Shown here: in pieces, positions 4,906 to 26,898 of the stretch
Numbering within the stretch: position 1 is the stretch's first letter
Layout of the letters: each line of letters starts with the position of its first letter
Assembly (NCBI GenBank): GCA_017556585.1
Contig: JAFYMP010000044.1
Coordinates: forward strand, 26,463 to 90,462
DNA length: 64,000 bases
From: Bacteroidaceae bacterium
Lineage (GTDB): Bacteria; Bacteroidota; Bacteroidia; Bacteroidales; Bacteroidaceae
Direction: 5' to 3'
Notes under the pieces: generated by a model
What the model saw: the letters and a program-made list of their open reading frames with translations, nothing else
Databases searched by the model: none
What the model was told of the DNA's origin: nothing
Made by a program: the position numbers and the translations under genes

Positions 4906-5907
4906 TTATTTAAATGAATCTGTCAGTAATTTAATCTCTATTACCGGAGATATCTGGTCATAAAGTATATCGTATATTGCATTAAGTATAGGCATATTGA
5001 CACGATAGTGTTCATTTACCTCTTTCATACATTTTGTACCATAATATCCTTCTGCTATCATCTCCATCTCCAACTGAGCCGATTTTACAGAATAGCCCTT
5101 ACCTATCATTGTTCCAAACACTCTGTTTCTACTAAATTTGGAATAACCTGTAACCAACAAGTCTCCCAAATAGACTGAATCGTTAACAGCTCTGTTTGGC
5201 ATAGGTCTGGCCACTGCCAAAAAGTCGTTCATCTCTTGAATGGCATTCGACATAAGAACTGCCTGGAAATTATCGCCATACTTTAAGCCACTGCAAATAC
5301 CGGCAGCAATAGCATAGACATTCTTTAGTACAGAACTGAATTCAATACCTGCCACATCGGTGCTGACCGAAGTCTTAACGTAAGTATTGGTAAGTTTTTT
5401 GGCTATCATCTGGGCATTTTCAATATTCTGACAACCAACAGTAAGATAAGAGAGACGTTCCATTGCCACCTCTTCTGCATGACAAGGACCTGCTACTACC
5501 GATATATTTTCTACAGGAACTCCGTAATAGCGATGGAAATAATCTGACATAAGTAGATTATCGTCCGGAACAATTCCCTTTATGGCCGATACTACAAACT
5601 TGTCGCGTATCTTCACTTTAAGTTTCTTCATGTGAGACTTAAAGTAAGGCGACGGAGTTACAAAGACCAACACTTCTGAATCTTCTACCACTTTATTGAT
5701 ATCTGAATAGAAGTTTATGCGGTTGGTATCGAACTGCACAGTGGTAAGATACGCCGGATTATGCCCCAATCTTTTAAAGTCCTCAATTCTATCTTCTCTA
5801 CGAATGTACCAGTTGATAGAATCTTCTGTTGAGAGCAGAATCTTGGCTATGGCAGTTGCCCAACTGCCACCTCCCATTATTGCCAGTTTTCCTTGTGGAA
5901 TAGCCAT
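4906..5907 (-). CDS. gpsA: NAD(P)H-dependent glycerol-3-phosphate dehydrogenase
   Basis: 333 aa. N-terminal Rossmann motif MGGGSWATAIA; GpsA-like KGI, NVYAIAAG and GRN-like motifs. Confidence 0.9.
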   Translation of the reverse strand: MAIPQGKLAIMGGGSWATAIAKILLSTEDSINWYIRREDRIEDFKRLGHNPAYLTTVQFDTNRINFYSDINKVVEDSEVLVFVTPSPYFKSHMKKLKVKIRDKFVVSAIKGIVPDDNLLMSDYFHRYYGVPVENISVVAGPCHAEEVAMERLSYLTVGCQNIENAQMIAKKLTNTYVKTSVSTDVAGIEFSSVLKNVYAIAAGICSGLKYGDNFQAVLMSNAIQEMNDFLAVARPMPNRAVNDSVYLGDLLVTGYSKFSRNRVFGTMIGKGYSVKSAQLEMEMIAEGYYGTKCMKEVNEHYRVNMPILNAIYDILYDQISPVIEIKLLTDSFK

Positions 5908-5911
5908 ATAA

Positions 5912-7426
5912 TTAATCTTTTGTTTCAGGCTTCATTTGTGGGAAGAACAGCACCTCTTGAATAGCCTGCTGTCCTGTCAAAAGCATAGTAAGACGGTCTA
6001 TTCCTATACCAATACCACTGGTAGGAGGCATACCGTATTCAAGCGCACGTACAAAATCCTGATCTATAAACATAGCTTCGTCATCGCCCTTCTGGCTTAA
6101 ACGCAACTGTTCCTGGAAACGTTCGTACTGGTCTATAGGATCGTTCAATTCGCTATATGCATTTGCCAACTCCTTACCGTTTACCATAAGTTCAAAACGT
6201 TCTGTCAAACCCGGTTTACTGCGATGAGCCTTTGTTAGTGGTGACATCTCTACAGGATAGTCTATTATGAATGTAGGCTGTATGTATGTACCTTCGCAGA
6301 ATTCACCAAAGATTTCATCTATAAGTTTACCCTTACCCATGCTGGCATCCACATCCAGTTTAAGAGCCTTGCAAACTTCGCGAATTTCATCTTCCGATTT
6401 GCCTTCCAAATCGTATCCTGTCTTCTCTTTGATAGAATCCAATATAGAGATTCTCTTATATGGAGCCTTAAAGTTGATGGTGTTATCGCCTATCTTGGCT
6501 TCGTATGAACCATTAACCTCAAAACAGATTTTTTCCAATAGTTTTTCTGTGAAATCCATCATCCAGTTGTAGTCCTTGTACTGAACATAAAGTTCCATAC
6601 AGGTAAATTCCGGATTATGAGTTCTGTCCATACCTTCGTTACGGAAGTTCTTACCAATTTCGTAAACGCCTTCAAAACCACCTACTATAAGGCGTTTCAA
6701 ATACAATTCTGTTGCTATACGGCAATACAAATCTATATCCAGACTGTTATGATGTGTAATGAAAGGTCTTGCGCTTGCACCACCCGGTATAGACTGCAAA
6801 ATAGGAGTTTCTACCTCTGTGTAACCGGCACCATCCAATACTGAACGCATTGTTGAGATTATCTTTGAGCGTTTCAGGAAGGTCTCTTTTACACCTTCGT
6901 TCACTACCAAATCCACGTAGCGCTGACGATATCTTGAATCGGGATCGTCAAACTTATCGTATGCCACACCGTCTTTATATTTTACTATAGGCAGAGGACG
7001 AAGTGATTTAGCCAATACGGTTAGTTTCTGTGCATGAATGGTAATTTCTCCCATCTGTGTACGGAACACAAAGCCTTCAATGCCAATAAAATCGCCTATA
7101 TCAAGCAACTTTTTGAATACCTTATTATACATCTCTTTGTCTTCGCCCGGGCAAATATCATCGCGGGTTACATATATCTGGATACGTCCTTTTGAGTCCT
7201 GCAATTCTACAAACGATGCCTTACCCATAATGCGACGGCTCATCAATCTGCCGGCCACACACACCTTTCTTGGTTCATCTTCGTCTTTAAATTCTGCTTT
7301 TATATCTACCGAGAAGGCATTTGTTGGGTACATAGCAGCAGGATATGGGTCTATACCCATTGCGCGCAACTCTTTCAGGCTTTCACGTCTGTATTGTTCC
7401 TGATCGTTTAATTCAATGTTACTCAT
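5912..7426 (-). CDS. lysS: lysine--tRNA ligase (class II)
   Basis: Motifs [15 protein letters not shown] and GIGIGIDRL. The track ORF extends to 7528, but I place the start at the ATG at 7424-7426 ([15 protein letters not shown]). The TAACTTTG -7 box at 7495-7502 lies inside the longer ORF. Confidence 0.93.
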
Positions 7427-7494
7427 TTCTATTTCCAAATGATTGATAAAAAGTCTTTTTTGCCAAATAAAGCACAATTCGGCAATATCATTTG

Positions 7495-7502
7495 CAAAGT
7501 TA
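7495..7502 (-). promoter_or_regulatory. -7 promoter box for the lysS-gpsA-pgi-HAD operon
   Basis: The plus strand reads CAAAGTTA, which is TAACTTTG on the minus strand, 69 nt upstream of the lysS ATG at 7426. Confidence 0.45.
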
Positions 7503-7717
7503 GTTATTTTTAGTTTATCAACAGACAAAGTTTTCTATTTTTCCACCTTGTTTATATAACAATAATTGTCCTCATAGCGATATTTTTTAACAGACGTTAT
7601 CACCAATCCTTTCATTTATATAATATTCAGGTTTGTTCAACTCAATAAACTATTGTTATCGCGCACTAATAAAACACAAACTTTCAATAAATATTTCTTA
7701 CAGTAATTTGATTCACA

Positions 7718-7725
7718 TACATTTG
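7718..7725 (+). promoter_or_regulatory. -7 promoter box upstream of the CDP-alcohol phosphatidyltransferase operon
   Basis: TACATTTG lies 22 nt upstream of the ATG at 7748. Confidence 0.4.
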
Positions 7726-7747
7726 TCACAACAAAACAACAACGAAT

Positions 7748-8440
7748 ATGGAGAAACTTGCAACTGAAAAATCCGTAAGGATACAGACATCTGTACTAAG
7801 CAAAATAGAAAAGAGAGTACTAATTTGGTTGGCACAACGACAGCCAAGATGGGTAAATTCCGATATGATGACATTTTTAGGCACTGTAGGAGCACTGATA
7901 ATAGCCGCGGGGTATATTCTTTCTAATTTGAATATCAACTTTTTATGGATTGCATCATTGGGATTCATCATAAATTGGTACGGCGATTCGCTTGACGGTA
8001 CATTAGCAAGAATCAGACATTGCCAACGCCCAAATTATGGTTACTATTTAGACCATTCTATAGATGCTATAAACGAAATCTTTATGTTTATAGGCATAGG
8101 ATTATCGCCTTTTTTGGATATCAGATTAGCAATGGCAGGCTTAGTTATCTATTTTCTGCTAACCATAAATGTAAGCATAAATGCTCATCTGAAAGGTGAA
8201 TTCAGACTGACATACGCAAAGATGGGACCAACCGAACTGCGTATTATTATGATTATAATCAACACACTCATCATCTATTGGGAAGCATTACGTGAACAGA
8301 TGAATTTTATAGGTGGAATTTTAATACTATTACTGCTTATAACCTATATAGCCACAGTTGTAACAGATGCAAAGGGTTATGAAAAAATGGATAATGAAAT
8401 AAAAAACAAGAAAAAGAGCAATGCCACTCTTAACCCATAA
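7748..8440 (+). CDS. CDP-alcohol phosphatidyltransferase family protein
   Basis: 230 aa, multi-TM. Family signature DSLDGTLAR-x9-GYYLDHSIDA (D-x2-DG-x2-AR...G-x3-D-x3-D). Confidence 0.8.
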   Translation: MEKLATEKSVRIQTSVLSKIEKRVLIWLAQRQPRWVNSDMMTFLGTVGALIIAAGYILSNLNINFLWIASLGFIINWYGDSLDGTLARIRHCQRPNYGYYLDHSIDAINEIFMFIGIGLSPFLDIRLAMAGLVIYFLLTINVSINAHLKGEFRLTYAKMGPTELRIIMIIINTLIIYWEALREQMNFIGGILILLLLITYIATVVTDAKGYEKMDNEIKNKKKSNATLNP

Positions 8441-9239
8441 CGATTTAGAGAAAATTTCTCCACTGTTCAAAGGGAGATCCGGACATCTGCTTGCAGATAT
8501 CCTTATGAAACTGTTTGCTGTAGATAAAGTTTGCGCTCTATACAACAATAACGAACAATATTCAGGTGTAGATTTTGCACATCATATACTGCAAGATATT
8601 GGCGTTAATTACACTGTTTTGGGATCTGAAAGGCTGGAACAGCTCCCCAAAGGTGCATTTATCACAATAAGCAATCATCCATACGGAAGTATTGATGGAA
8701 TTATGCTTATAGATCTGATAGGCAAATATCGTCCGGAGTACAAAGTTTTAGTAAATCAGATATTAGGTCATATAGAACGGTTAGAGCCCAATTTTATTAA
8801 GGTAGTACCTACAGGAAAGCAGAAAGAGGGTGTAAAAAAAGAGAGTTTAAGAGGTATTATGCAGTCACTTAAACATCTGCAATCGGGCGCACCGTTAGGA
8901 TTGTTTCCGTCGGGAGCCGTATCTGATTTAAGCATAAAAGATGGTTGCATACGCGACAGAGAATGGCAACTTTCTGCCATTCAACTAATAAAGAAAGCAT
9001 GCGTTCCCATTGTCCCTATAAGATTCAGAGACAAAAATTCAATGTTTTACTATCTATTGGGGCTACTAAACTGGAAGATTAGGGTTACCAGGCTCCCTCG
9101 CGAAGTTTTTAACAAAAGAGACAAGATTACGCGCGTAGAGGTGTGCCCCATAATTACAGTGGAAGAACAAGACAAATACTCCAACATTGAAGAGTTCCGC
9201 AATTATTTACGTTCCACAATCTACCCTATCCCCAAGTAA
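8421..9239 (+). CDS. lysophospholipid/glycerolipid acyltransferase family protein
   Basis: 272 aa. NHPYGSIDG histidine/aspartate acyltransferase-like motif and FPSG motif. The ATG overlaps the upstream gene by 20 nt. Confidence 0.6.
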   Translation: MPLLTHNDLEKISPLFKGRSGHLLADILMKLFAVDKVCALYNNNEQYSGVDFAHHILQDIGVNYTVLGSERLEQLPKGAFITISNHPYGSIDGIMLIDLIGKYRPEYKVLVNQILGHIERLEPNFIKVVPTGKQKEGVKKESLRGIMQSLKHLQSGAPLGLFPSGAVSDLSIKDGCIRDREWQLSAIQLIKKACVPIVPIRFRDKNSMFYYLLGLLNWKIRVTRLPREVFNKRDKITRVEVCPIITVEEQDKYSNIEEFRNYLRSTIYPIPK

Positions 9240-10817: not shown

Positions 10818-10866
10818 CTATGGTTAAACTAAGACAATAATTGTCCTATAAAATAGATAGAATAGA

Positions 10867-11904
10867 ATGAGTTACCTAATTGTACCAAAGAACTACAAAC
10901 AGTTGCTCACAATGAGACAGACTGAGCAAGGTATTAAACTTATTAAAGAGTTCTTCCAGCAAAACCTATCCACAGGTTTGCAGCTTCGCCGTGTTACCGC
11001 ACCTTTATTTGTGTTAAAAGGTATGGGTATAAACGACGATTTAAGTGGTAAAGAACGCGCTGTAACATTCCCTATTAAAGATTTAGGCGATGCGAAAGCA
11101 GAAGTTGTACACTCTTTGGCAAAATGGAAACGTTTAACCCTGGCTGAATATGACATCAAGCCCGGATATGGTATTTACACCGATATGAATGCCATACGTT
11201 CCGATGAAAGTTTAGGCAATCTACACTCTCTTTATGTTGACCAATGGGACTGGGAACGCACCATAACAGCAGAAGACAGAAACATTGATTTCCTGAAACG
11301 CATTGTTAGAAAAATCTATTCTGCAATGTTAAGAACAGAATATCTCATAAACGAAACATATCCGCAGTTAGAGCCATTCCTGGCACGCGAAGTATTCTTT
11401 ATTCACTCTGAGGAGCTAAGAAGATTATACCCTGATATGAGTGCAAAGGAGCGTGAAGATGCTATAACAAAAGAACATGGTACTGTATTCATAATGGGCA
11501 TAGGCGGTAATTTAGAAGACGGCAAACCACACGATTTGCGTGCCCCTGACTATGACGATTGGACCACACCAAATAGCGATGGTTTCTGTGGCTTAAACGG
11601 AGACCTGCTTGTTTGGAACTCTATTCTGGACCGTTCTATTGAATTGTCATCAATGGGAATAAGAGTAGATAAAAAAGCATTACTACACCAATTGGAACTA
11701 ACAGGACAAGAGGATCGCAAAGAGCTATATTTCCACAAAAAGTTACTGAATGGAGAACTACCGTTATGTATAGGTGGCGGTATAGGTCAGTCCAGACTGT
11801 GTATGCTCTTCTTGCAAAAAGCCCACATTGGAGAGATTCAGGCAAGTATTTGGCCGGAAGATCAGATTGCCGAGTGTAAAAAAGCAGGAATTGAACTTAT
11901 ATAA
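10867..11904 (+). CDS. asnA: aspartate--ammonia ligase (asparagine synthetase A)
   Basis: 345 aa. AsnA-like throughout ([23 protein letters not shown]). Confidence 0.93.
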
Positions 11905-11909
11905 TATCT

Positions 11910-12572
11910 ATGAAGGTAAAGATTGAAGAGAGTTGGGAGAAGGTTTTGCAGCCCGATTTTGAGAAGCCTTATTTTAAGGAACTGACAGATTTTGTCAGGT
12001 CTGAATATGCTACCACTACCATATACCCACCCGCTTCACTTATCTTCAATGCTTTCAATCTATGTCCGTTTGACAAAGTAAAAGTGGTAATAATAGGGCA
12101 AGATCCTTACCATGGTCCCGGGCAGGCGCACGGTTTATGTTTCTCTGTGAATGACGGCATTCAGTTCCCCCCATCGTTACAAAACATATTCAAGGAGATA
12201 AAATCAGATTTGGACATACCCATACCCACAAGCGGGAATCTTACAAGATGGGCAGAACAGGGCGTTCTACTTTTGAATGCTACACTTACTGTAAGAGCCC
12301 ACAATGCAGGTTCACACCAGAAAAAGGGATGGGAGACATTTACAGATTCTGTAATAAGAATTTTAGCAGAACAGAAAGAGAATTTAGTCTTTATTCTATG
12401 GGGAGCATACGCACAGAAGAAGGGAGCATTTATAGATAAAAATCGTCATCTGGTACTCTCATCTGCACATCCATCGCCACTATCGGCATACAATGGTTTT
12501 TTTGGCAACCATCACTTCAGTCTGACCAACAAATGGCTGACCGAACATAATCTAAAGGCTATAGATTGGTAA
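11910..12572 (+). CDS. ung: uracil-DNA glycosylase
   Basis: 220 aa. Catalytic motif [18 protein letters not shown] and HPSPLS. Confidence 0.95.
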
Positions 12573-16006: not shown

Positions 16007-19135
<3,129 letters not shown>

Positions 19136-19153
19136 TTATATTTTTCATTCCAT

Positions 19154-19185
19154 TTTGCGAAGATAGAAAAAAAATCTTATTTTTG
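19154..19185 (+). promoter_or_regulatory. candidate -33 TTTG / -7 TAnnTTTG promoter for the LRR surface-protein gene
   Basis: TTTG at 19154-19157 and TATTTTTG at 19178-19185, with a 20-nt spacer. This implies a ~200-nt 5' leader before the ATG at 19391. Confidence 0.4.
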
Positions 19186-19390
19186 CACATAAAATCAGAA
19201 CCTACTAACAGAAGTTTGCATATAATAAAAGTTTGTTTGCGTATAAAATTAGAATATAATAGTTTAAGGCAAGCAGTATATTCAAAACTGTAAATAACTG
19301 TCTATGTGATCGGACCAACATTTTCTCCGATGACACTGATTTTAAATTTAAAAGAAGTTTAATTATTAATGGATAAACATAACTAAAACA

Positions 19391-22000
19391 ATGAAAAAAA
19401 GATTGAGAACAATGCTCCTGGCCCTCGTGGCCATTATTATGCCCATCAAAGTCATAGGCCACGACTTCGAGGCGGGCGGTATCTACTATAACATCACCTC
19501 GGTCAAGGAGAAGACCGTAGAGGTCACCTACAGCGGAAGTTCACACTCTGAGGTTGCCGATGAGTACATCGGCGAGGTCATCATTACCGCTACGGTTACA
19601 CACGAGGACATCACCTATAACGTGAGGAGCATAGGAGATTGTGCGTTCTATGACTGCTCCTCACTAACCAATATCACCATCCCCAAGGGCGCTACGAGCA
19701 TTGAAAACCATGCGTTCTATAACTGCACCTCGCTCACCAGCATCACCATCCCCGAAGGCGTGAAGAGCATTGGAAACTGTGCGTTCTATGACTGCTCCTC
19801 ACTAACCAATATCACCATTCCCAGGAGCGTTACGCGCATTGAAAACACTACGTTCTCTGGTTGCTCCTCACTAACCAACATCACCATCCCCAGCAACGTA
19901 ACGAGCATTGGAAACAGTGCATTCCATAGTTGCAGTAGCCTCGCCAGCATTACCCTCCCCAGTAGGATGACGAAGATTGAGAACTATGCGTTCTATGGCT
20001 GCTCAGCACTCACCGATATACACTATTTGGATTCAGAAGAAAATTGGGAAAATATCAAAAAAGGAGATCTCCACAGCAACTCCCCCCTCACCAGTGCTAC
20101 CAAGCACTACTATGTAAACGGCTTCAATACCGAAGATGGAGCATACCTGCCCGCTACACTCAATACCGAGGGCTACTACGAGATAGAGAACGGTGGTCAG
20201 CTCTTCTGGTTTGCCAACCACATCAACACGATTGACAGAACAGCCAACGCAAAGCTAATAGCTGACATCAATCTCGAAAACAGAGCTTGGACTCCAATAG
20301 GCTCGACGGGTGAGACTAACAATAACTTCCGTGGACACTTTGACGGGCAAGGCTATACGATTGAAGGGCTTAACGTGAACGCAAATCGCGCAGGCGCAGG
20401 TCTTTTCGGAGAGGTCAGACTCGGCACGGTGGAGCACTTTACCGTCAAAGGTACTGTGAGTGTAACAGAAAATAGCGTAACCTACGTTGGCGGTGTCTTC
20501 GGCTCTGCTCCTGGCGCAAACTCTGACGCACCCGACCATAATGGTGCAACCATTCGCGATATTGTTTCCTACGTGAATGTATGCGTAGCGGACGGCAAGA
20601 CGGGCGTTGGCCGTATCGGTGGATTCATCGGATATGCCAACCACGAAACTGTCATCGAAAACTGTGCATGGTACGGCACGCTTGACCTTGGCAACCAGAC
20701 AATGACGCTCGGTGTAGGCGGATTCATCGGACGCGTCCACGAGAACTCCACCGTGACCATCACCAACTGTGCGGCCTACGGTAGCATCGTTAACGACAGT
20801 GTAACAGAGAATGTGGGCGCCTTCTTAGGATATAGTGGCACGAATACTGGCACCTTGCTTGAGAACTGTCTCTTTGCTGGCACCGTGTCGGGTGATAACA
20901 GCATAGCTGTCACTGCATTCGGAACCTGGAAAGCAGGAACGGAAATCCGAAACAGCTATTACGTCAACACCATCAGCACGGCATACACGGGGACCATTCC
21001 TACGGTTTCGGCTGTAGCCGTCACCACCGCCCAGCTCGCAAGTGGTGAAGTAGCCTATAATCTCGGCAAGGCGTGGGGACAGATTATCGGCACCGACAAA
21101 GAGCCAGTGCTAGGCGGTGCTGTGGTGTACTACGGCTATCTCTCATGTGCCAAGGATACCCAGAAAGAATATACCAACAATGCCGCTGGCGACGAGAAAC
21201 CTCATAGCTACGTGGATGGTTTCTGCACCGTGTGCGGACACATCAACACAGAGGGCAGCGTCATCATCCACGACGGCCAGCACACCGCGTTCACCATTGC
21301 CGGTGACATAGAGGTGACATCCCTCACCTACACCCGCACCCTGCCCAACCTGATGTGGAATGCGCTGTATGTACCATTTGAAATTCCATTAAGTGAATTG
21401 GCAGACGACTATGACGTGGCCTACATCAACGATATCCGCTCTTATGACAATGATGAAAACGGAGAAATTGATGATATGACAATGGAAATAATACGTATTA
21501 ATAATGGTACGTTAAATGCAAACCACCCATACCTAATACGCGCAAAGAATGAAGAAGCGCGGAATATGGAGATAGTGCTTAACGATGCCACACTATACAG
21601 CACTGAAGAAAATTCCTTTAATTGTTCATCAATGTATATGGAGTTCACTATAACCGGAACATATCAATCTCTAAGCGCAGAAGATTTAGAGGACAGATAT
21701 GCAATCTCTACCAGTGGTGCATGGCAAAAGCTAAGCGCAGGAAGCTCACTAAAGCCATTCCGCCTATATATGGAAATGACACCACGTGATGGTTCACCCG
21801 TAAAGGTGGAAGCTGCTGCACTTTCACGCATCCGTATCAATATGCAGGATGAAGATGGAAATACCACAGGGGTTGAAATTTTGGAGGCGCCACAGAGCAT
21901 AAACGATGCAGTTCTTTACGATTTATATGGTCGCAAGGTAACCACTCCGGTTAAAGGCGGCATATATATTAGTAACGGAAAGAAAGTAATAGTTAAGTAA
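19391..22000 (+). CDS. BspA-type leucine-rich-repeat / GLUG-motif surface protein with T9SS C-terminal sorting domain
   Basis: 869 aa with a signal peptide. About six 23-aa LRR units (IGNCAFYDCSSLTNITIP...). The GLUG-like region has FRGHFDGQGYTIEGL followed by repeated GG(F/V)(I/F)G. The C-terminus VLYDLYGRKVTTPVKGGIYISNGKKVIVK is typical of Por-secretion tails. Confidence 0.8.
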   Translation: MKKRLRTMLLALVAIIMPIKVIGHDFEAGGIYYNITSVKEKTVEVTYSGSSHSEVADEYIGEVIITATVTHEDITYNVRSIGDCAFYDCSSLTNITIPKGATSIENHAFYNCTSLTSITIPEGVKSIGNCAFYDCSSLTNITIPRSVTRIENTTFSGCSSLTNITIPSNVTSIGNSAFHSCSSLASITLPSRMTKIENYAFYGCSALTDIHYLDSEENWENIKKGDLHSNSPLTSATKHYYVNGFNTEDGAYLPATLNTEGYYEIENGGQLFWFANHINTIDRTANAKLIADINLENRAWTPIGSTGETNNNFRGHFDGQGYTIEGLNVNANRAGAGLFGEVRLGTVEHFTVKGTVSVTENSVTYVGGVFGSAPGANSDAPDHNGATIRDIVSYVNVCVADGKTGVGRIGGFIGYANHETVIENCAWYGTLDLGNQTMTLGVGGFIGRVHENSTVTITNCAAYGSIVNDSVTENVGAFLGYSGTNTGTLLENCLFAGTVSGDNSIAVTAFGTWKAGTEIRNSYYVNTISTAYTGTIPTVSAVAVTTAQLASGEVAYNLGKAWGQIIGTDKEPVLGGAVVYYGYLSCAKDTQKEYTNNAAGDEKPHSYVDGFCTVCGHINTEGSVIIHDGQHTAFTIAGDIEVTSLTYTRTLPNLMWNALYVPFEIPLSELADDYDVAYINDIRSYDNDENGEIDDMTMEIIRINNGTLNANHPYLIRAKNEEARNMEIVLNDATLYSTEENSFNCSSMYMEFTITGTYQSLSAEDLEDRYAISTSGAWQKLSAGSSLKPFRLYMEMTPRDGSPVKVEAAALSRIRINMQDEDGNTTGVEILEAPQSINDAVLYDLYGRKVTTPVKGGIYISNGKKVIVK
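19641..19818 (+). repeat. perfect 40-nt direct repeat inside the LRR array
   Basis: GTGCGTTCTATGACTGCTCCTCACTAACCAATATCACCAT occurs identically at 19641-19680 and 19779-19818. The 138-nt offset equals two LRR units. A third near-copy lies at about 19862. Confidence 0.9.
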
Positions 22001-22055: not shown

Positions 22056-22172
22056 ATGCAAACAAAAGAGTATGTAAGCCCGGAAATCACAGTTGTAGAA
22101 TGCTGTGTAGAAAAAGGATTCGCAGTAAGTGAAATGCCTATCGACCGAAACGGATGGGGCGACCCGGCATAA
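22056..22172 (+). CDS. unlisted small ORF (38 aa), hypothetical peptide
   Basis: The ATG at 22056 reads MQTKEYVSPEITVVECCVEKGFAVSEMPIDRNGWGDPA and ends at TAA 22170-22172. It lies 56 nt after the LRR gene stop and 19 nt before a strong terminator. It is too short for the track. Confidence 0.3.
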   Translation: MQTKEYVSPEITVVECCVEKGFAVSEMPIDRNGWGDPA

Positions 22173-22191: not shown

Positions 22192-22221
22192 GCAGGGAGC
22201 GGCACTATTGTCGCTCCCTGC
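22192..22221 (+). terminator. intrinsic terminator
   Basis: GCAGGGAGCG / CGCTCCCTGC forms a perfect GC-rich 10-bp stem with a 10-nt loop, followed by TTGTGTT. Confidence 0.6.
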
Positions 22222-22350: not shown

Positions 22351-24300
22351 ATGGCGTTAACAGATAGCAAGAAAATTATAGAGAAATATGGTTTTTGGAT
22401 CTATTCATTGCTTTTGGCTATTATTGTATTTTACACTTTAGGAGTGGAATACAACGAATGGCTTATAAGAATAGAATCAAAATCGTTGTTTATTTACAAT
22501 AGTGACTTTTTTAAAGAGACGGTGCTTGTCCCTACAGGATTGTTAAGCTACATATCGCTGTTCTTAACACAGTTTTTGCATTCGCCACTGATAGGTGCAA
22601 CCATTTTCACATTGTTGCTGTTTTTTTCGGCTTTTATTACAAAAGTCGCATATAACATTTCCGACAGAGATTCTATAATTGCATTTCTGCCTGCAGTGCT
22701 TATACTGATTATAAACGGCAGCATAGGTTATGCCCTTTACACACTTAAATCACCGGGATTCTTCTTTATGCCTGTTTTGGGTTATGCCATTTCCACCACA
22801 GCAGTATGGGGCATAAGTAGAATTAAATCGCCGGTACTATCAATCCCGGCTATTATAATCTGGTGTTTTTTGGGTTATTTAAGTTTTGGTATATATGCGT
22901 TAGCGGCAACAGTAGCTGTCACGGTTGTTCAGTACAAACGTGAATGTATCAATGTAGCCAGAATAGCAATCCTCCTGTTTGCTGTAATATTCTTAGTGTT
23001 TACTCCGCTGATTACGTATAATCTGACAACAACAGTAAGTTCCGTTTCCAAAACGTTTTTGTTAGGAATTCCAAATCTCACCGCAGGACAACACAGCTCT
23101 GTTTTCGGTACAGCATTTGCCATACTTATTGCTATTCAGATTGCACTTTCCATATACAAACCACTACCACAAGCAAAAGCGCCAAGTTACCTGTTTATGC
23201 AAAGTGGTATTTTGATTATATATCTGCTTTCCGCATATCTTTGCTGGTTTAGAGACCCAAATTTCAAGGCAGAGATAGCAATGTCGAATGCCATTGACAA
23301 CAACAATTGGAAAGAGGTATGCAACATTCACAAAGAGATTTCTGACAAATACATAAACAGTGACAGAAAGGCATACGAAAAACTTTCTGCAAAAGCGAAT
23401 ATAGCCACATCGCCTGCTGAACTTGAAAATCTTATAGAAGAGACGAAGGGCAAATTCTACGAACCAAGTCGTATGATGGTTCAATTTAAGAATCTGGCAC
23501 TTGTAAAATTAGGAACAGAGGCTAACCAGGCTTTTGCATATAAAGATGGAGGACGTATTCAAAAGTTCAAGAACACTATTCCTATAGCTCTGCAATGCGG
23601 CAAGCAGTTATATCTGCATTACGGATTACCTTTTTTTGCTTACAGATGGTGTATAGAAGAGGCTGTTGAATATGGTTGGAATGTAGATAATTTAAAATAT
23701 GCCACACTATCTTGTATTCTTACCGGCGATTATGGCGTTGCTTGCAAATTTCTGGATAAACTTGATAAAACATTATACCATAAGAGATGGGCAAAAGAGG
23801 TGAGAAAATACATAGACCACCCATCACTAATAGCAGAAGCAGAGCAATTCAAAAGCATAAAGCAGTTAATGTGTTATGACAGTACACTGGACAACGACAA
23901 TGCTGTAATTGAGTCATATCTCATTAAACATTTTACTACACACAGGCCACAAAATGCAACTCCTCAGTTTGACAAAGTTGCTATGCTATGGGCATTGCAG
24001 ACACAAGACATTGCTACTTTTTGGAAATGTTTCTCTAATTACATTCAGACAAACGATACACAAAAGATGCCTCGTTACTATCAAGAGGCCGCCCTACTCT
24101 ACGGCAATCTTGAAAAGAGTGTCAATATAAGCAATATGCCTTTCGATAAGGCTGTACTTACATCGTATGAGAATTTCAACAGATTCTCTTCCGGTCACGC
24201 GGTACGTTCTATTGAGGTTTCACGTTTTCCATATTCAGAACGATTTGGAAACACTTTCTACTTTTACTACTATTTCATTAGGAACTTGAATACTTATTGA
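22351..24300 (+). CDS. large polytopic membrane protein, DUF6057-like (uncharacterised)
   Basis: 649 aa. About 9-10 hydrophobic helices in the first ~300 aa, then a ~350-aa helical soluble region. The family assignment is from memory of the N-terminal pattern (LF.YNSDFF...PTGLLSY..LFLTQF) and was not searched. Confidence 0.55.
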   Translation: MALTDSKKIIEKYGFWIYSLLLAIIVFYTLGVEYNEWLIRIESKSLFIYNSDFFKETVLVPTGLLSYISLFLTQFLHSPLIGATIFTLLLFFSAFITKVAYNISDRDSIIAFLPAVLILIINGSIGYALYTLKSPGFFFMPVLGYAISTTAVWGISRIKSPVLSIPAIIIWCFLGYLSFGIYALAATVAVTVVQYKRECINVARIAILLFAVIFLVFTPLITYNLTTTVSSVSKTFLLGIPNLTAGQHSSVFGTAFAILIAIQIALSIYKPLPQAKAPSYLFMQSGILIIYLLSAYLCWFRDPNFKAEIAMSNAIDNNNWKEVCNIHKEISDKYINSDRKAYEKLSAKANIATSPAELENLIEETKGKFYEPSRMMVQFKNLALVKLGTEANQAFAYKDGGRIQKFKNTIPIALQCGKQLYLHYGLPFFAYRWCIEEAVEYGWNVDNLKYATLSCILTGDYGVACKFLDKLDKTLYHKRWAKEVRKYIDHPSLIAEAEQFKSIKQLMCYDSTLDNDNAVIESYLIKHFTTHRPQNATPQFDKVAMLWALQTQDIATFWKCFSNYIQTNDTQKMPRYYQEAALLYGNLEKSVNISNMPFDKAVLTSYENFNRFSSGHAVRSIEVSRFPYSERFGNTFYFYYYFIRNLNTY

Positions 24301-24303
24301 TAT

Positions 24304-25794
24304 ATGAAAAAGATTACACCTTATATATTATTGTCGTTCCTGCTTGCAGCATGTACGGCAAACATACCTCAGAATTTTTCTGAAAGCAAAGAGGCTACAG
24401 AGATTTTTCCGGATTTTTCAAACATTACAATTCCGTCTAACATTGCTCCTCTGAATTTCCAAATTCTGACTGAGGCAGATAAATATGTAACCCGTTTTTC
24501 AAATGGAAGTTATGAATATCTGCAATCGGGCAATACCATAAACATTCCGTTATCCAAATGGGAAAAATTGATGGCAAACAGTAATAAGATAGAGGTAGAT
24601 ATCTACTCATCACACCACGGCAGTTGGGTAAAGCACCCTACATTTACCTGGCAAATAGCAGAAGAAATAGACCCCTACATATCTTACAGACTTATTCCAC
24701 CATCGGTAGAAAGTTACGAAAGACTAAGTATCAATCAGCGTAATCTGACAAATTTTGAAGAGACAGTTATTTACGCCAATTCTATGGTACAGCACGATGA
24801 TAACGGACAGTGTATAAACTGCCATCACTACAAAAATTGGGAGACAGACCAGATGATGTTCCACGCAAGACAGTATTTGGGTGGCACAGTAATCATCAAT
24901 AATGGAGATATGAAGAGAATCAACCTGAAGACCGACTCAACCATATCGGCAGGTGTTTATCCGGCATGGCATCCAACACACAACTACATTGCATTCTCCA
25001 CAAATAAGACACGCCAATCTGTACATACCAATAACAACAATCGTATAGAGGTGTTCGATACAGAAAGCGATCTTATTCTTTACAACATAGACAAAAACAG
25101 CGTAAGCATAGTAGAAAACGATACCGCAGAATTTGAATGTTTTCCGGCCTGGACACCCGACGGTAAAACCCTGTATTACGTTTCAGCCCACTTTGATTAC
25201 GGTTTTGGTTCTGACAGAGAAGAGTATATTGTAAAGAACCACAAGAGCATTCACTACAATCTGTACAAAAAATCGTTCAACCCTGAAACTGCAGCGTGGG
25301 GCAAACCCGAATTGGTTTACGATGCAGCATCAGAAGACAAAAGCATCACTCTGCCAAGAGTATCACCTGACGGTAGATATCTGTTGTTCACTATGGGCGA
25401 TTATGGGGTCTTCCACATTTGGCACAAAGACGCTAATTTATATCTAATGGATTTGCAGAATGGCTCTACACGTGAATTATCCGAAATAAACAGTAGCGAC
25501 GTAGAGAGTTATCACTCTTGGTCCAGCAATGGTAAGTGGATTATTTTCAGTACCAGACGCGATGATGGTGGTTTTACCCGTCTGTACTTATCTCATTTAG
25601 GCGAGGATGGAAAGTTTACAAAAGCATTCCCCATTCCGCAACAATCACCTGACTACAGTACTAATTTTATGTTCTCATACAACATACCTGAATTTATGAA
25701 AGAACCAGTAAGCGTATCTCCAAAAGAGATTGCATCGTTCTTTAAGAATTCAGAAACCATTCAAGCCAATTACACTAAAACCGTCAACGAATAA
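24304..25794 (+). CDS. lipoprotein with a CXXCH heme-binding motif and PD40/TolB-like beta-propeller repeats
   Basis: 496 aa. Lipobox LLAAC. One CINCH motif (NGQCINCHHYK). Repeated PD40-like blades (AWHPTHNYIAFS, AWTPDGKTLYYVS, VSPDGRYLLFT, WSSNGKWIIFS). Starts 3 nt after the upstream gene. Confidence 0.6.
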   Translation: MKKITPYILLSFLLAACTANIPQNFSESKEATEIFPDFSNITIPSNIAPLNFQILTEADKYVTRFSNGSYEYLQSGNTINIPLSKWEKLMANSNKIEVDIYSSHHGSWVKHPTFTWQIAEEIDPYISYRLIPPSVESYERLSINQRNLTNFEETVIYANSMVQHDDNGQCINCHHYKNWETDQMMFHARQYLGGTVIINNGDMKRINLKTDSTISAGVYPAWHPTHNYIAFSTNKTRQSVHTNNNNRIEVFDTESDLILYNIDKNSVSIVENDTAEFECFPAWTPDGKTLYYVSAHFDYGFGSDREEYIVKNHKSIHYNLYKKSFNPETAAWGKPELVYDAASEDKSITLPRVSPDGRYLLFTMGDYGVFHIWHKDANLYLMDLQNGSTRELSEINSSDVESYHSWSSNGKWIIFSTRRDDGGFTRLYLSHLGEDGKFTKAFPIPQQSPDYSTNFMFSYNIPEFMKEPVSVSPKEIASFFKNSETIQANYTKTVNE

Positions 25795-25797
25795 GAG

Positions 25798-26898
25798 ATG
25801 AGATTATTTAGAAGCGTTACACTTTTGTTAATACTGTTATTTGGAGCAAGCACAGATTTGTTTTGTGCAGATCAGTTTGTTGTGGTTTTAGATGCAGGAC
25901 ACGGAGGAAAAGATCCGGGTGCCGTTAATGGCAAGGCACAGGAAAAGAACATCAACCTGAATGTTGCTCTTAAAGTAGGCAAACTTATTGAAGAGAATTG
26001 CAAAGATGTAAAGGTTATATATACAAGAAAGAGTGATACCTTTATAGAATTGAGCAAGCGTGCAGATATTGCAAACAAAGCAGATGCAGATCTGTTTATC
26101 TCTATACATACAAATTCGGCTACAAATAAATCGGCATACGGTGCCGAAACTTTTCTTTTAGGTGTTGAAGAGAACAGGACAAGCGCAAATTTCAATGTAG
26201 CCATAGCAGAGAACAAAGCCATATTGTACGAAAGCGACTACGAAACCACATACGCAGGATACGACCCAAATAGTGCAGAGAGTCAGATTATCTTTGAATT
26301 TATGCAGAATGAGCATCAAAAGGAGAGCCTGAAGTTTGCATCTATTGTACAGAACAGATTGGTTAATACAGCACAAAGGCATAACAGAGGGGTCCATCAG
26401 GCTGGTTTTCTTGTTTTGTGGCGTAGCGCCATGCCAAGCATCCTTATAGAATTGGGATTCATATCGAATGCCAATGATATGAAGTATATGACATCACAAA
26501 AAGGTATGGACGAATTAAGCCAAAGCATATATCTGGCATTCAATGAATATCTGACAGAAACCAGAAACGGTCAAAACAAAACAGCATCGGTTGTTATGGA
26601 AAGTAAGCCGCAAACAGAGGTTATCACAGCCGGTATACCTGTATTCAAAGTGCAGTTCCTTACATCTAAAACTGTTTTAGGTAAAAAAGACAGCCGTTTA
26701 TCCGGCCTATCGGATGTAGAATACTATAAAGATAATGGCCTGTATAAGTACACTTGTGGTGCAACCACCGATTACAATAAGATTCAAGCTACAAAGAAAG
26801 AGGTAAACAAAAAATATAAAGATGCATTTATTGTTGCTTTTTTAGGCGAAAAGAGAATTAGTATTGACGAAGCAAGACGATTAGCCGGCAAGAACTAA
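25798..26898 (+). CDS. N-acetylmuramoyl-L-alanine amidase (Amidase_3) with C-terminal SPOR domain
   Basis: 366 aa with a signal peptide. Motifs VVLDAGHGGKDPGA, SIHTNS and ILIELGFISN. The SPOR-like tail is VFKVQFLTS...AFIVAF. Starts 3 nt after the upstream gene. Confidence 0.85.
   Translation: MRLFRSVTLLLILLFGASTDLFCADQFVVVLDAGHGGKDPGAVNGKAQEKNINLNVALKVGKLIEENCKDVKVIYTRKSDTFIELSKRADIANKADADLFISIHTNSATNKSAYGAETFLLGVEENRTSANFNVAIAENKAILYESDYETTYAGYDPNSAESQIIFEFMQNEHQKESLKFASIVQNRLVNTAQRHNRGVHQAGFLVLWRSAMPSILIELGFISNANDMKYMTSQKGMDELSQSIYLAFNEYLTETRNGQNKTASVVMESKPQTEVITAGIPVFKVQFLTSKTVLGKKDSRLSGLSDVEYYKDNGLYKYTCGATTDYNKIQATKKEVNKKYKDAFIVAFLGEKRISIDEARRLAGKN

Follow-up and report, generated by a model that had tools for sequence, protein, structure and literature searches.

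Probable replacement of the passenger region by higher-GC DNA inside a conserved frame at a hypervariable surface-protein locus of Bacteroidales

The surface-protein gene and its compositional step

The DNA considered here, referred to as the window, is a stretch of 64,000 nucleotides (nt) from a Bacteroidaceae bacterium (GenBank assembly GCA_017556585.1, contig JAFYMP010000044.1, positions 26,463 to 90,462 of the forward strand). The assembly carrying it is a metagenome-assembled genome (MAG) of 2.09 Mb in 103 contigs, with 39.0% GC and a completeness of 83%. The gene under study is an open reading frame (ORF) at 19391-22000 of the window, on the plus strand, which encodes a surface protein of 869 amino acids (aa). 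In the locus order, genes for AsnA, UDG, LptD, an HD protein and a GH2 beta-galactosidase lie upstream of it, and a DUF6057/Tricorn-like/amidase operon and dnaA follow downstream. The gene is composed of a short signal-peptide end, a long middle portion designated here as the passenger, and a C-terminal module or tail, behind which a small ORF and a terminator-like hairpin are found. A preliminary description, made from the letters of the window, had regarded the gene as a compositional chimera with a GC-rich core between native ends.

Measured in 200-nt windows, the GC content is 0.22-0.26 at 19100-19399, 0.46-0.56 at 19400-21399 and 0.38-0.44 from 21400 onward. This stretch of the gene is the GC peak of the 64 kb, where the remaining 1-kb bins range from 0.33 to 0.44 and none exceeds 0.44. 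The GC content at third codon positions (GC3) is 0.622 in codons 1-659 and 0.362 in codons 660-869 of the ORF, and the genome background is 0.350 +/- 0.055 (905 ORFs of at least 300 codons). By maximum likelihood, GC3 changes at codon 659 (nt 21368; 2-lnL support interval 21353-21452), and the log-likelihood ratio of 21.9 compares with a maximum of 9.5 in 500 permutations. The step survives control for amino-acid composition, in which expected values were taken from genome-wide codon usage. Codons 20-643 show an observed GC3 of 0.609 against an expected 0.299 (z = 17.2), whereas codons 644-869 show 0.372 against 0.312 (z = 2.0). The preference for ATC, ACC and GGC codons that had been described for the core is likewise borne out by their shares in the core and in the genome (ATC 54% vs 16%, ACC 54% vs 22%, GGC 46% vs 20%). 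Leucine-rich repeat (LRR) proteins of the LRR_5 family encoded elsewhere in the same genome have a GC3 of 0.22-0.34; therefore, the coding of LRRs has no power to explain the high value. The step in composition is genuine and lies well outside what chance would give.

Other long ORFs with a GC3 of 0.63-0.72 are present in this genome outside the window (C95:33297-35544, C95:261-1617 and C71:151574-156365). As these values compare with 0.35 genome-wide, GC-rich imports would also occur elsewhere in the genome, and the locus is not unique in this respect.

Alternative alleles at the same locus

With the tail alone as query (last 215 residues), about 25 clusters of proteins were retrieved (P0121-P0146); their tails share 91-94% aa identity with that of the window protein, with P0146 at 85%. 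The tail-sharing proteins are 857-1414 aa long, and most of them have no LRR_5 domain. They have the signal peptide MKKRLKTMLLALVAIIMPI in common, and between the two ends they show no similarity to the window protein. Clustering of the passengers placed the window protein and P0001 in one class and the other 25 of the 27 in two classes unrelated to the middle of the window gene. At 70% identity, the 27 passengers fall into 10 clusters, and the common group is itself diverse. The LRR_5 passenger was found only in the window strain and one other sampled strain (2 of 27 allele clusters). At the protein level, similarity to the window passenger is absent from 23 of the 25 other passenger clusters; in the two exceptions, P0128 and P0132, the sole overlap is a short LRR_5 stretch inserted before the tail. 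These two proteins of the common class (P0128 at 4927-9171 of locus L020) carry an extra LRR_5 segment and a CTVCG-type linker just ahead of the tail, and thereby represent a third, composite form of passenger. Such composites suggest that exchange may be partial as well as of the whole cassette.

Several of these genes were fetched together with their contigs (tail-sharing genes at L017, L019, L020 and L021, and L026 from the sister-species representative G075). In all of them, as in L001 described below, the gene occupies the same site, between the GH2 beta-galactosidase gene and the DUF6057 operon, so that, in these six sequences from related strains, alternative forms exist at one chromosomal locus. 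Comparison of the window with L017, L019, L020, L021 and L026 by blastn revealed 90-97% nt identity over the upstream DNA and the first 19 codons, up to 19447, and again from 21321 over the last 226 codons and the downstream DNA. Across 19448-21320, no homology to these five alleles was detectable by blastn. Near-identical ends thus enclose a non-homologous middle. The GC3 of the passengers in the other alleles is 0.36-0.43, compared with 0.61 in the window. The preliminary description had proposed to look for alternative passenger cassettes between conserved ends in an alignment of the locus across strains, and they are present.

The same gene is present in an independent assembly from another sample (L001, ENA ERZ27247112), where the protein is 94% identical and the DNA 97.9% identical over an aligned 7.8 kb. 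The downstream genes, the junctions and the GC3 step are as in the window, and a divergence of 2-5% is spread over cassette, tail and flanks. Among 60 species representatives of the same genus, the tail occurs at high identity only in the window genome itself (G000) and in G075 (92%). The LRR cassette was found in no other species among these 60, and the sister species (G075/L026) carries a common-class passenger at this locus.

The neighborhood of the gene varies as well. Among strains with the same surface-protein frame, the DUF6057/Tricorn-like/amidase operon (window 22351-26898) splits into two strongly divergent haplotypes: L001, L019 and L020 match the window at about 99% nt identity, and L017, L021 and L026 reach about 70-76%. 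For the GH2 gene, identity to the window is 80-97% and varies independently of the operon haplotype. In L017, an additional gene for a 376-aa thioredoxin/AhpC-like protein (10822-11952, minus strand) lies between the small ORF and the DUF6057 gene. Such a strongly mosaic neighborhood would fit a locus where recombination is frequent and selection is diversifying.

Anatomy of the junctions

In blastn comparisons, homology to the other alleles (91-94% up to that point) ends at 19446/19447 and resumes at 21321-21324; therefore, the exchanged cassette spans 19448-21320, corresponding to codons 20-643. The conserved 5' part of the frame includes the upstream intergenic and promoter region (19124-19390, plus strand; GC 0.24), which is 91-94% nt identical to L017, L019, L020 and L021. 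It continues with the first 19 signal-peptide codons, MKKRLRTMLLALVAIIMPI (19391-19447, plus strand), which specify the same peptide through near-identical DNA in all alleles. The common 5' end reads ATGAAAAAAAGATTGA(A/G)AACAATGCT(C/T)CT(G/T)GCCCTCGTGGCC...ATGCCCATC, with few further variant positions, after which the alleles diverge. The 5' crossover site is located at the end of these 19 codons, in the motif ATGCCCATC (MPI). Among the GC-rich homologues, L003 and L016 have the same motif in their signal peptides, and L002 has MPL instead. In L003, the signal-peptide region reads ...CTCATGCCCATCGGGGCC...CACGACTTCAAGGTGGGCGGTATCTACTAC, and from CACGAC onward the window cassette is close to the L003-type GC-rich family. 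Codons 8-19 (CTCCTGGCCCTCGTGGCC...CCCATC) are GC-rich in every allele and are part of the conserved frame. The 5' switch had been placed within about 25 nt of the start codon, and the GC-rich codons from about 19412 had been taken as the beginning of foreign DNA. The composition does switch at about 19414, but the recombination junction lies at codon 19/20, since homology runs to 19446/19447, and the GC-rich codons before it belong to the native frame.

On the 3' side, the window matches the LRR family up to ...IHDGQHTAFTIAGDIEVTSL and then continues with TYTRTLPNLMWNALYVPFEIP... exactly as the native alleles do. The junction zone (21321-21460, plus strand) at the start of the C-terminal module contains the block ACCTACACCCGCACC, which is identical in nearly all alleles of the AT-rich lineage to which the window belongs (lineage A), in L016 of a GC-richer lineage (lineage B) and in L002/L003. 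The tail protein of L002/L003 is only 45% identical, yet the block is kept; in L019 and L031, it deviates at one or two bases, all synonymous. When lineages A and B are compared, the first approximately 150 nt of the tail show 90-97% identity in most 30-nt bins, whereas beyond them identity is 50-87%, mostly 50-80%. The zone is a mosaic, in that the sub-segment matching lineage B varies among alleles, a pattern left by crossovers that have recurred here. In all alleles, the opening 17 codons of the tail are GC-rich (GC3 0.87), and for this reason the GC3 change point at 21368 lies about 45 nt past the homology junction. The preliminary description had set the 3' switch at about 21370-21440 and the native tail at about 190 codons; the junction lies further upstream, as homology already resumes at 21321-21324, and the native tail comprises 226 codons.

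Content and origin of the cassette

The passenger cassette (19448-21320, plus strand; GC 0.517) consists of a BspA-type LRR_5 array (about aa 61-243), a 400-aa region rich in GGxxG, and a CTVCG linker. Assignment of the array to LRR_5 (PF13306) is supported by a score of 178 bits against a gathering cut-off of 27.7 (E = 8.9e-53, in two stretches). The NCBIfam model for HupY/LrrG gave 58 bits against a cut-off of 1250, so that the likeness to BspA is confined to the repeat type. Within the array, 19641-20030 contains internal direct repeats (shifted blastn self-matches of 74-76% over 178-292 nt), which could mediate gain or loss of repeat units. The middle region had been labeled as GLUG; a Pfam search of aa 241-643 gave no match to PF07581 at E <= 1, and the label was not confirmed. 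What speaks for it is limited to PF07581 in the relative P0047 and a weak sequence match of the middle region in the PDB to a putative IgA1 protease (3n6z, E = 0.02).

Apart from P0001, the full protein is most similar to P0002 (55% aa identity) and P0003-P0016 (45-49%), which have the same overall architecture. The best relatives of the cassette, P0002 (55% aa identity) and P0003/P0009 (45-48%), are located on contigs of 50-55% GC, with flanking genes of GC3 0.54-0.91. GC3 is uniform at about 0.7 along the whole gene, tail included, in L002 and L003; for L016, the values are 0.56 (passenger) and 0.68 (tail). The cassette itself is 66-73% nt identical to its relatives. The tail, in contrast, has its closest relatives among alleles of AT-rich genomes. 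Separate searches of core and ends had been suggested in the preliminary description, and both the GC3 z-scores and the differing GC of the relatives assign the middle and the ends to different origins. Matches to cassette or tail within the genome of the window are distant LRR repeats (at most 47% aa identity) and short tail-end matches; paralogues in this genome were considered as cassette donors and rejected on this best value.

A chimera of the opposite kind was found in lineage B. The gene for P0147 (L031, 8001-11012) lies between uvrD and gyrA, outside the synteny of the window; the GC content of this locus is 47%, and the genes beside it have a GC3 of 0.50-0.68. Over its tail (GC3 0.67) and the small ORF behind it, the gene matches the LRR-type P0002 (L016) at 95.9% nt identity. 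Its signal peptide and passenger are of lineage-A type, the passenger having a GC3 of 0.415 and segments that match the L020 allele at 91% (269 nt) and 81.5% (503 nt). With an AT-rich passenger on this frame in the GC-richer lineage and the converse in the AT-rich one, exchange has proceeded both ways. L016 and L031 have no flanks in common, so that the case for allelism is confined to lineage A.

The C-terminal module and the downstream elements

The native C-terminal module (21320-22000, plus strand) comprises 226 codons and a stop codon. An AlphaFold model of the 226-aa tail (mean predicted local distance difference test score, pLDDT, 87.5) shows an all-beta domain, a disordered linker and a terminal hairpin of about 30 aa. 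A Foldseek search with this model gave no PDB match at E <= 0.001. Modules of this type are found on LRR_5 proteins across many Bacteroidales, with a tail identity of 45-58% in aa. The C-terminal motif YDLxGRxV...GIYIxNGKKVxxK is present, and the last approximately 45 aa (TGVE...VLYDLYGRKVTTPVKGGIYISNGKKVIVK) recur at the C-termini of many otherwise differing surface proteins of Bacteroidales. Because this segment recurs on unrelated surface proteins, a role in sorting or anchoring would suit it, and the terminal motif VLYDLYGRKVTTPVKGGIYISNGKKVIVK is probably a secretion or anchoring signal.

The tail had been described as a T9SS (type IX secretion system) sorting tail. The genome encodes T9SS machinery, including a full-length GldM/PorM (552 bits), and other proteins with a Por_Secre_tail domain. 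The gene is not among the six PF18962 (Por_Secre_tail) matches of its own genome, and neither Pfam nor NCBIfam gave a match to the tail even at relaxed E-values. In hhalign comparisons of the tail with the C-terminal domains of this type from the same genome, the probability was 1.4%, so that a T9SS type A sorting domain (PF18962/TIGR04183) was not recovered. With GldM present and all three comparisons negative, the label was not retained as given; a T9SS sorting function of the tail is plausible but unproven.

The small ORF (22056-22172, plus strand) begins 56 nt past the stop codon and encodes the 38-codon product MQTKEYVSPEITVVECCVEKGFAVSEMPIDRNGWGDPA. The genome has one copy of it, and neither Pfam nor NCBIfam yielded a family. 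It is conserved 3' of the tail in L001, L017, L019 and L021 and also in lineage B (L016 and L031, MQNEEYVSPQIRVVECRVENGFAVSEI...), where about 65% of the residues of the peptide match in an alignment by eye; therefore, the small ORF travels with the tail. The unit is closed by a terminator-like hairpin (22192-22221, plus strand) with a 13-bp stem, including 9 GC pairs, and a T-rich tail. The hairpin falls within the conserved stretch, since homology extends to 22231 in L017 and to the end of the query at 22500 in L019 and L020.

Proposed passenger replacement and competing explanations

The explanation that best accommodates these data, with a probability of about 85%, is that the passenger was replaced inside a conserved frame, at a hypervariable surface-protein locus, by recombination with a higher-GC Bacteroidales homologue. 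The frame consists of the promoter region, the 19 signal-peptide codons, the 226-codon C-terminal module, the small downstream ORF and the terminator. In the window strain and one other sampled strain, the resident passenger would have been replaced by approximately 1.87 kb (19448-21320) carrying the BspA-type LRR_5 array and the GGxxG-rich middle region from the homologous gene of a higher-GC lineage. Since homology is all or none and the junctions lie in motifs common to donor-type and resident genes, imported DNA is the probable source, and homologous (homeologous) recombination, presumably of the RecA type, is the most likely route. One crossover would have occurred in the signal-peptide motif ATGCCCATC (MPI) and the other in the block ACCTACACCCGCACC... 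(TYTRTLPN) that starts the C-terminal module. The local signals for expression, export and anchoring would thereby be kept, while a wholly different domain, probably of adhesin type, would be exposed, and the new passenger may alter binding specificity and antigenicity. The preliminary description had arrived at a cassette-like replacement from a higher-GC donor; the shared ends with unrelated passengers lend support to the replacement, and the donor is deduced and was not found.

The search for the donor covered 5.8 billion proteins with the full protein, the contigs of GTDB genomes, and JGI metagenome contigs with the middle region. Nothing above 55% aa identity overall was recovered, and a match of 73% extends over an 84-aa fragment only; with no closer match, the higher-GC donor is argued from composition and distant relatives. 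This is one of several points that weigh against the proposed replacement. At the 5' junction, the visible homology is confined to a 9-nt motif and some 57 nt of the signal peptide (84-90% identity); unless the actual donor was closer, RecA-dependent exchange would have had little to work with. The cassette differs by 2.3% between its two carrier strains, so that the event is not very recent and some amelioration might be expected. Moreover, the common-class passengers are mildly enriched in GC3 (z = 3-7.6) and are not perfectly native themselves. As the GC and GC3 of the cassette match genomes of 50-55% GC and not the present host, and no closer match turned up among the proteins, GTDB genomes and JGI contigs, the donor would be an unsampled, higher-GC member of the same gene family.

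The direction of the transfer is read from composition and allele frequency, and it could in principle be reversed. The LRR passenger would then be the older resident, the common-class passenger would have spread by replacement, and the high GC3 would go back to an older import of the whole gene. The mild GC3 enrichment of the common-class passengers fits this, as does the wide occurrence of the signal-peptide motif and the tail module on LRR_5 proteins of Bacteroidales (tail 45-58% aa). An old resident cassette should, however, have ameliorated as the tail has, whereas the cassette is 17 standard deviations off while the tail and flanks of the same allele are native in composition; in addition, the LRR type makes up only 2 of 27 allele clusters, and the sister species (G075/L026) has the common class here. 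A reversed direction is therefore considered improbable. Still less can be said for horizontal transfer of the whole gene followed by uneven evolution, that is, faster amelioration of the tail or codon selection on the passenger with no internal recombination. The distant homologues P0002, P0003 and P0009 do have the full architecture of signal peptide, LRR, middle region and tail, from which such a transfer could start. Differential amelioration cannot yield a tail and 5' end that are 90-97% nt identical to alleles of the same locus with a non-homologous passenger, and the native LRR paralogues, at GC3 0.22-0.34, also speak against this explanation, which is very improbable.

The remaining two explanations are scarcely credible. 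A chimera of assembly or binning, in which the contig joins reads of two organisms across a conserved motif, is conceivable for a MAG of 103 contigs and 83% completeness, all the more because the junctions lie in motifs conserved between lineages, where assemblers can switch organism. Against it, the same junctions recur in the independent assembly L001, which is not a copy of the same contig because its divergence is spread over cassette, tail and flanks, and the reading frame is intact with a plausible signal-peptide cleavage region. Conserved ends with a variable middle also resemble the expression sites of programmed antigenic variation within one genome, whether by gene conversion from silent cassettes or by a site-specific shufflon or invertase. 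In tblastn and blastn searches of the 2.09-Mb assembly (83% complete), however, no silent cassette or close paralogue and no second copy of the cassette, the tail or the common-class passenger was found; inverted repeats flanking the cassette are absent, and no recombinase gene occurs within about 8 kb in any syntenic locus. Programmed intragenomic variation is unlikely on these grounds, and its chances are put as low as those of an assembly chimera.

Replacement of the passenger by imported DNA may also be viewed on a wider scale. The signal-peptide motif, the highly conserved block that opens the tail, the C-terminal module and the accompanying small ORF could be, instead of a passive remnant, a cross-species scaffold on which gut Bacteroidales of differing GC trade whole passengers (LRR_5, Flg_new-type and others) in both directions, with the zone of about 150 nt kept at synonymous sites as a recombination handle. 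This extension is tentative and, at present, rather unlikely.

Relation to known systems and significance

In mosaic genes of the flagellin (fliC) type, the parts coding for the N- and C-terminal ends are conserved, and the center between them is hypervariable and exchanged laterally. The likeness to the locus described here lies in conserved ends that serve as recombination substrates and keep export and assembly, while the exposed, antigenically variable center is swapped. The protein family and the secretion route are different, the 5' end comprises only 19 codons here, and unrelated domain architectures are swapped. Autotransporters (type V) are also known to shuffle passengers, in that the signal peptide and a C-terminal translocation and anchor module are kept and the passengers exchanged, and the term passenger is borrowed from this system. 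In contrast to autotransporters, there is no beta-barrel translocator here; the modeled tail is an all-beta, soluble-type domain with a short C-terminal motif, in a genome with T9SS machinery. With BspA of Tannerella forsythia and the BspA-like LRR_5 adhesins, the protein shares the PF13306 array, and the likeness goes no further than the repeat type.

Among Bacteroidota, the closest case on record is that of Porphyromonas gingivalis. Its T9SS surface proteins (the adhesin modules of Kgp/RgpA/HagA, FimA and RagAB) form strain mosaics unrelated to the core phylogeny, which the authors put down to strains exchanging and recombining alleles horizontally (Dashper et al. 2017, PMC5266723). As at the present locus, exposed modules of surface proteins with a conserved C-terminal domain are exchanged. 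In P. gingivalis, homologous domains vary inside a single species whose GC is uniform, whereas here a whole non-homologous passenger is involved whose composition points to another lineage, and at least two lineages that differ in GC use the frame. The kind of event, a mosaic surface-protein locus, is thus known, and the locus is a clear but familiar case. Specific to it are the change of the entire passenger to a non-homologous architecture, the sharp compositional signature, and the use of the same frame across GC lineages with reciprocal chimeras.

The locus illustrates, cleanly and in nature, how a passenger is replaced as a whole in the probable secreted adhesin of an uncultured Bacteroidales bacterium of gut type. 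Its value lies in junctions resolved to a few bases, in about 27 allele clusters at one locus, and in a reciprocal chimera in a second lineage. A step of GC3 within a gene is a reliable pointer to passenger replacement, and the boundary seen in composition may be offset from the true crossover by conserved GC-rich motifs at the junction. For the organisms concerned, the finding means that commensal Bacteroidales can alter what they expose at the surface while the signals for expression and export stay in place, and that such exchange crosses lineages approximately 10 percentage points apart in GC.

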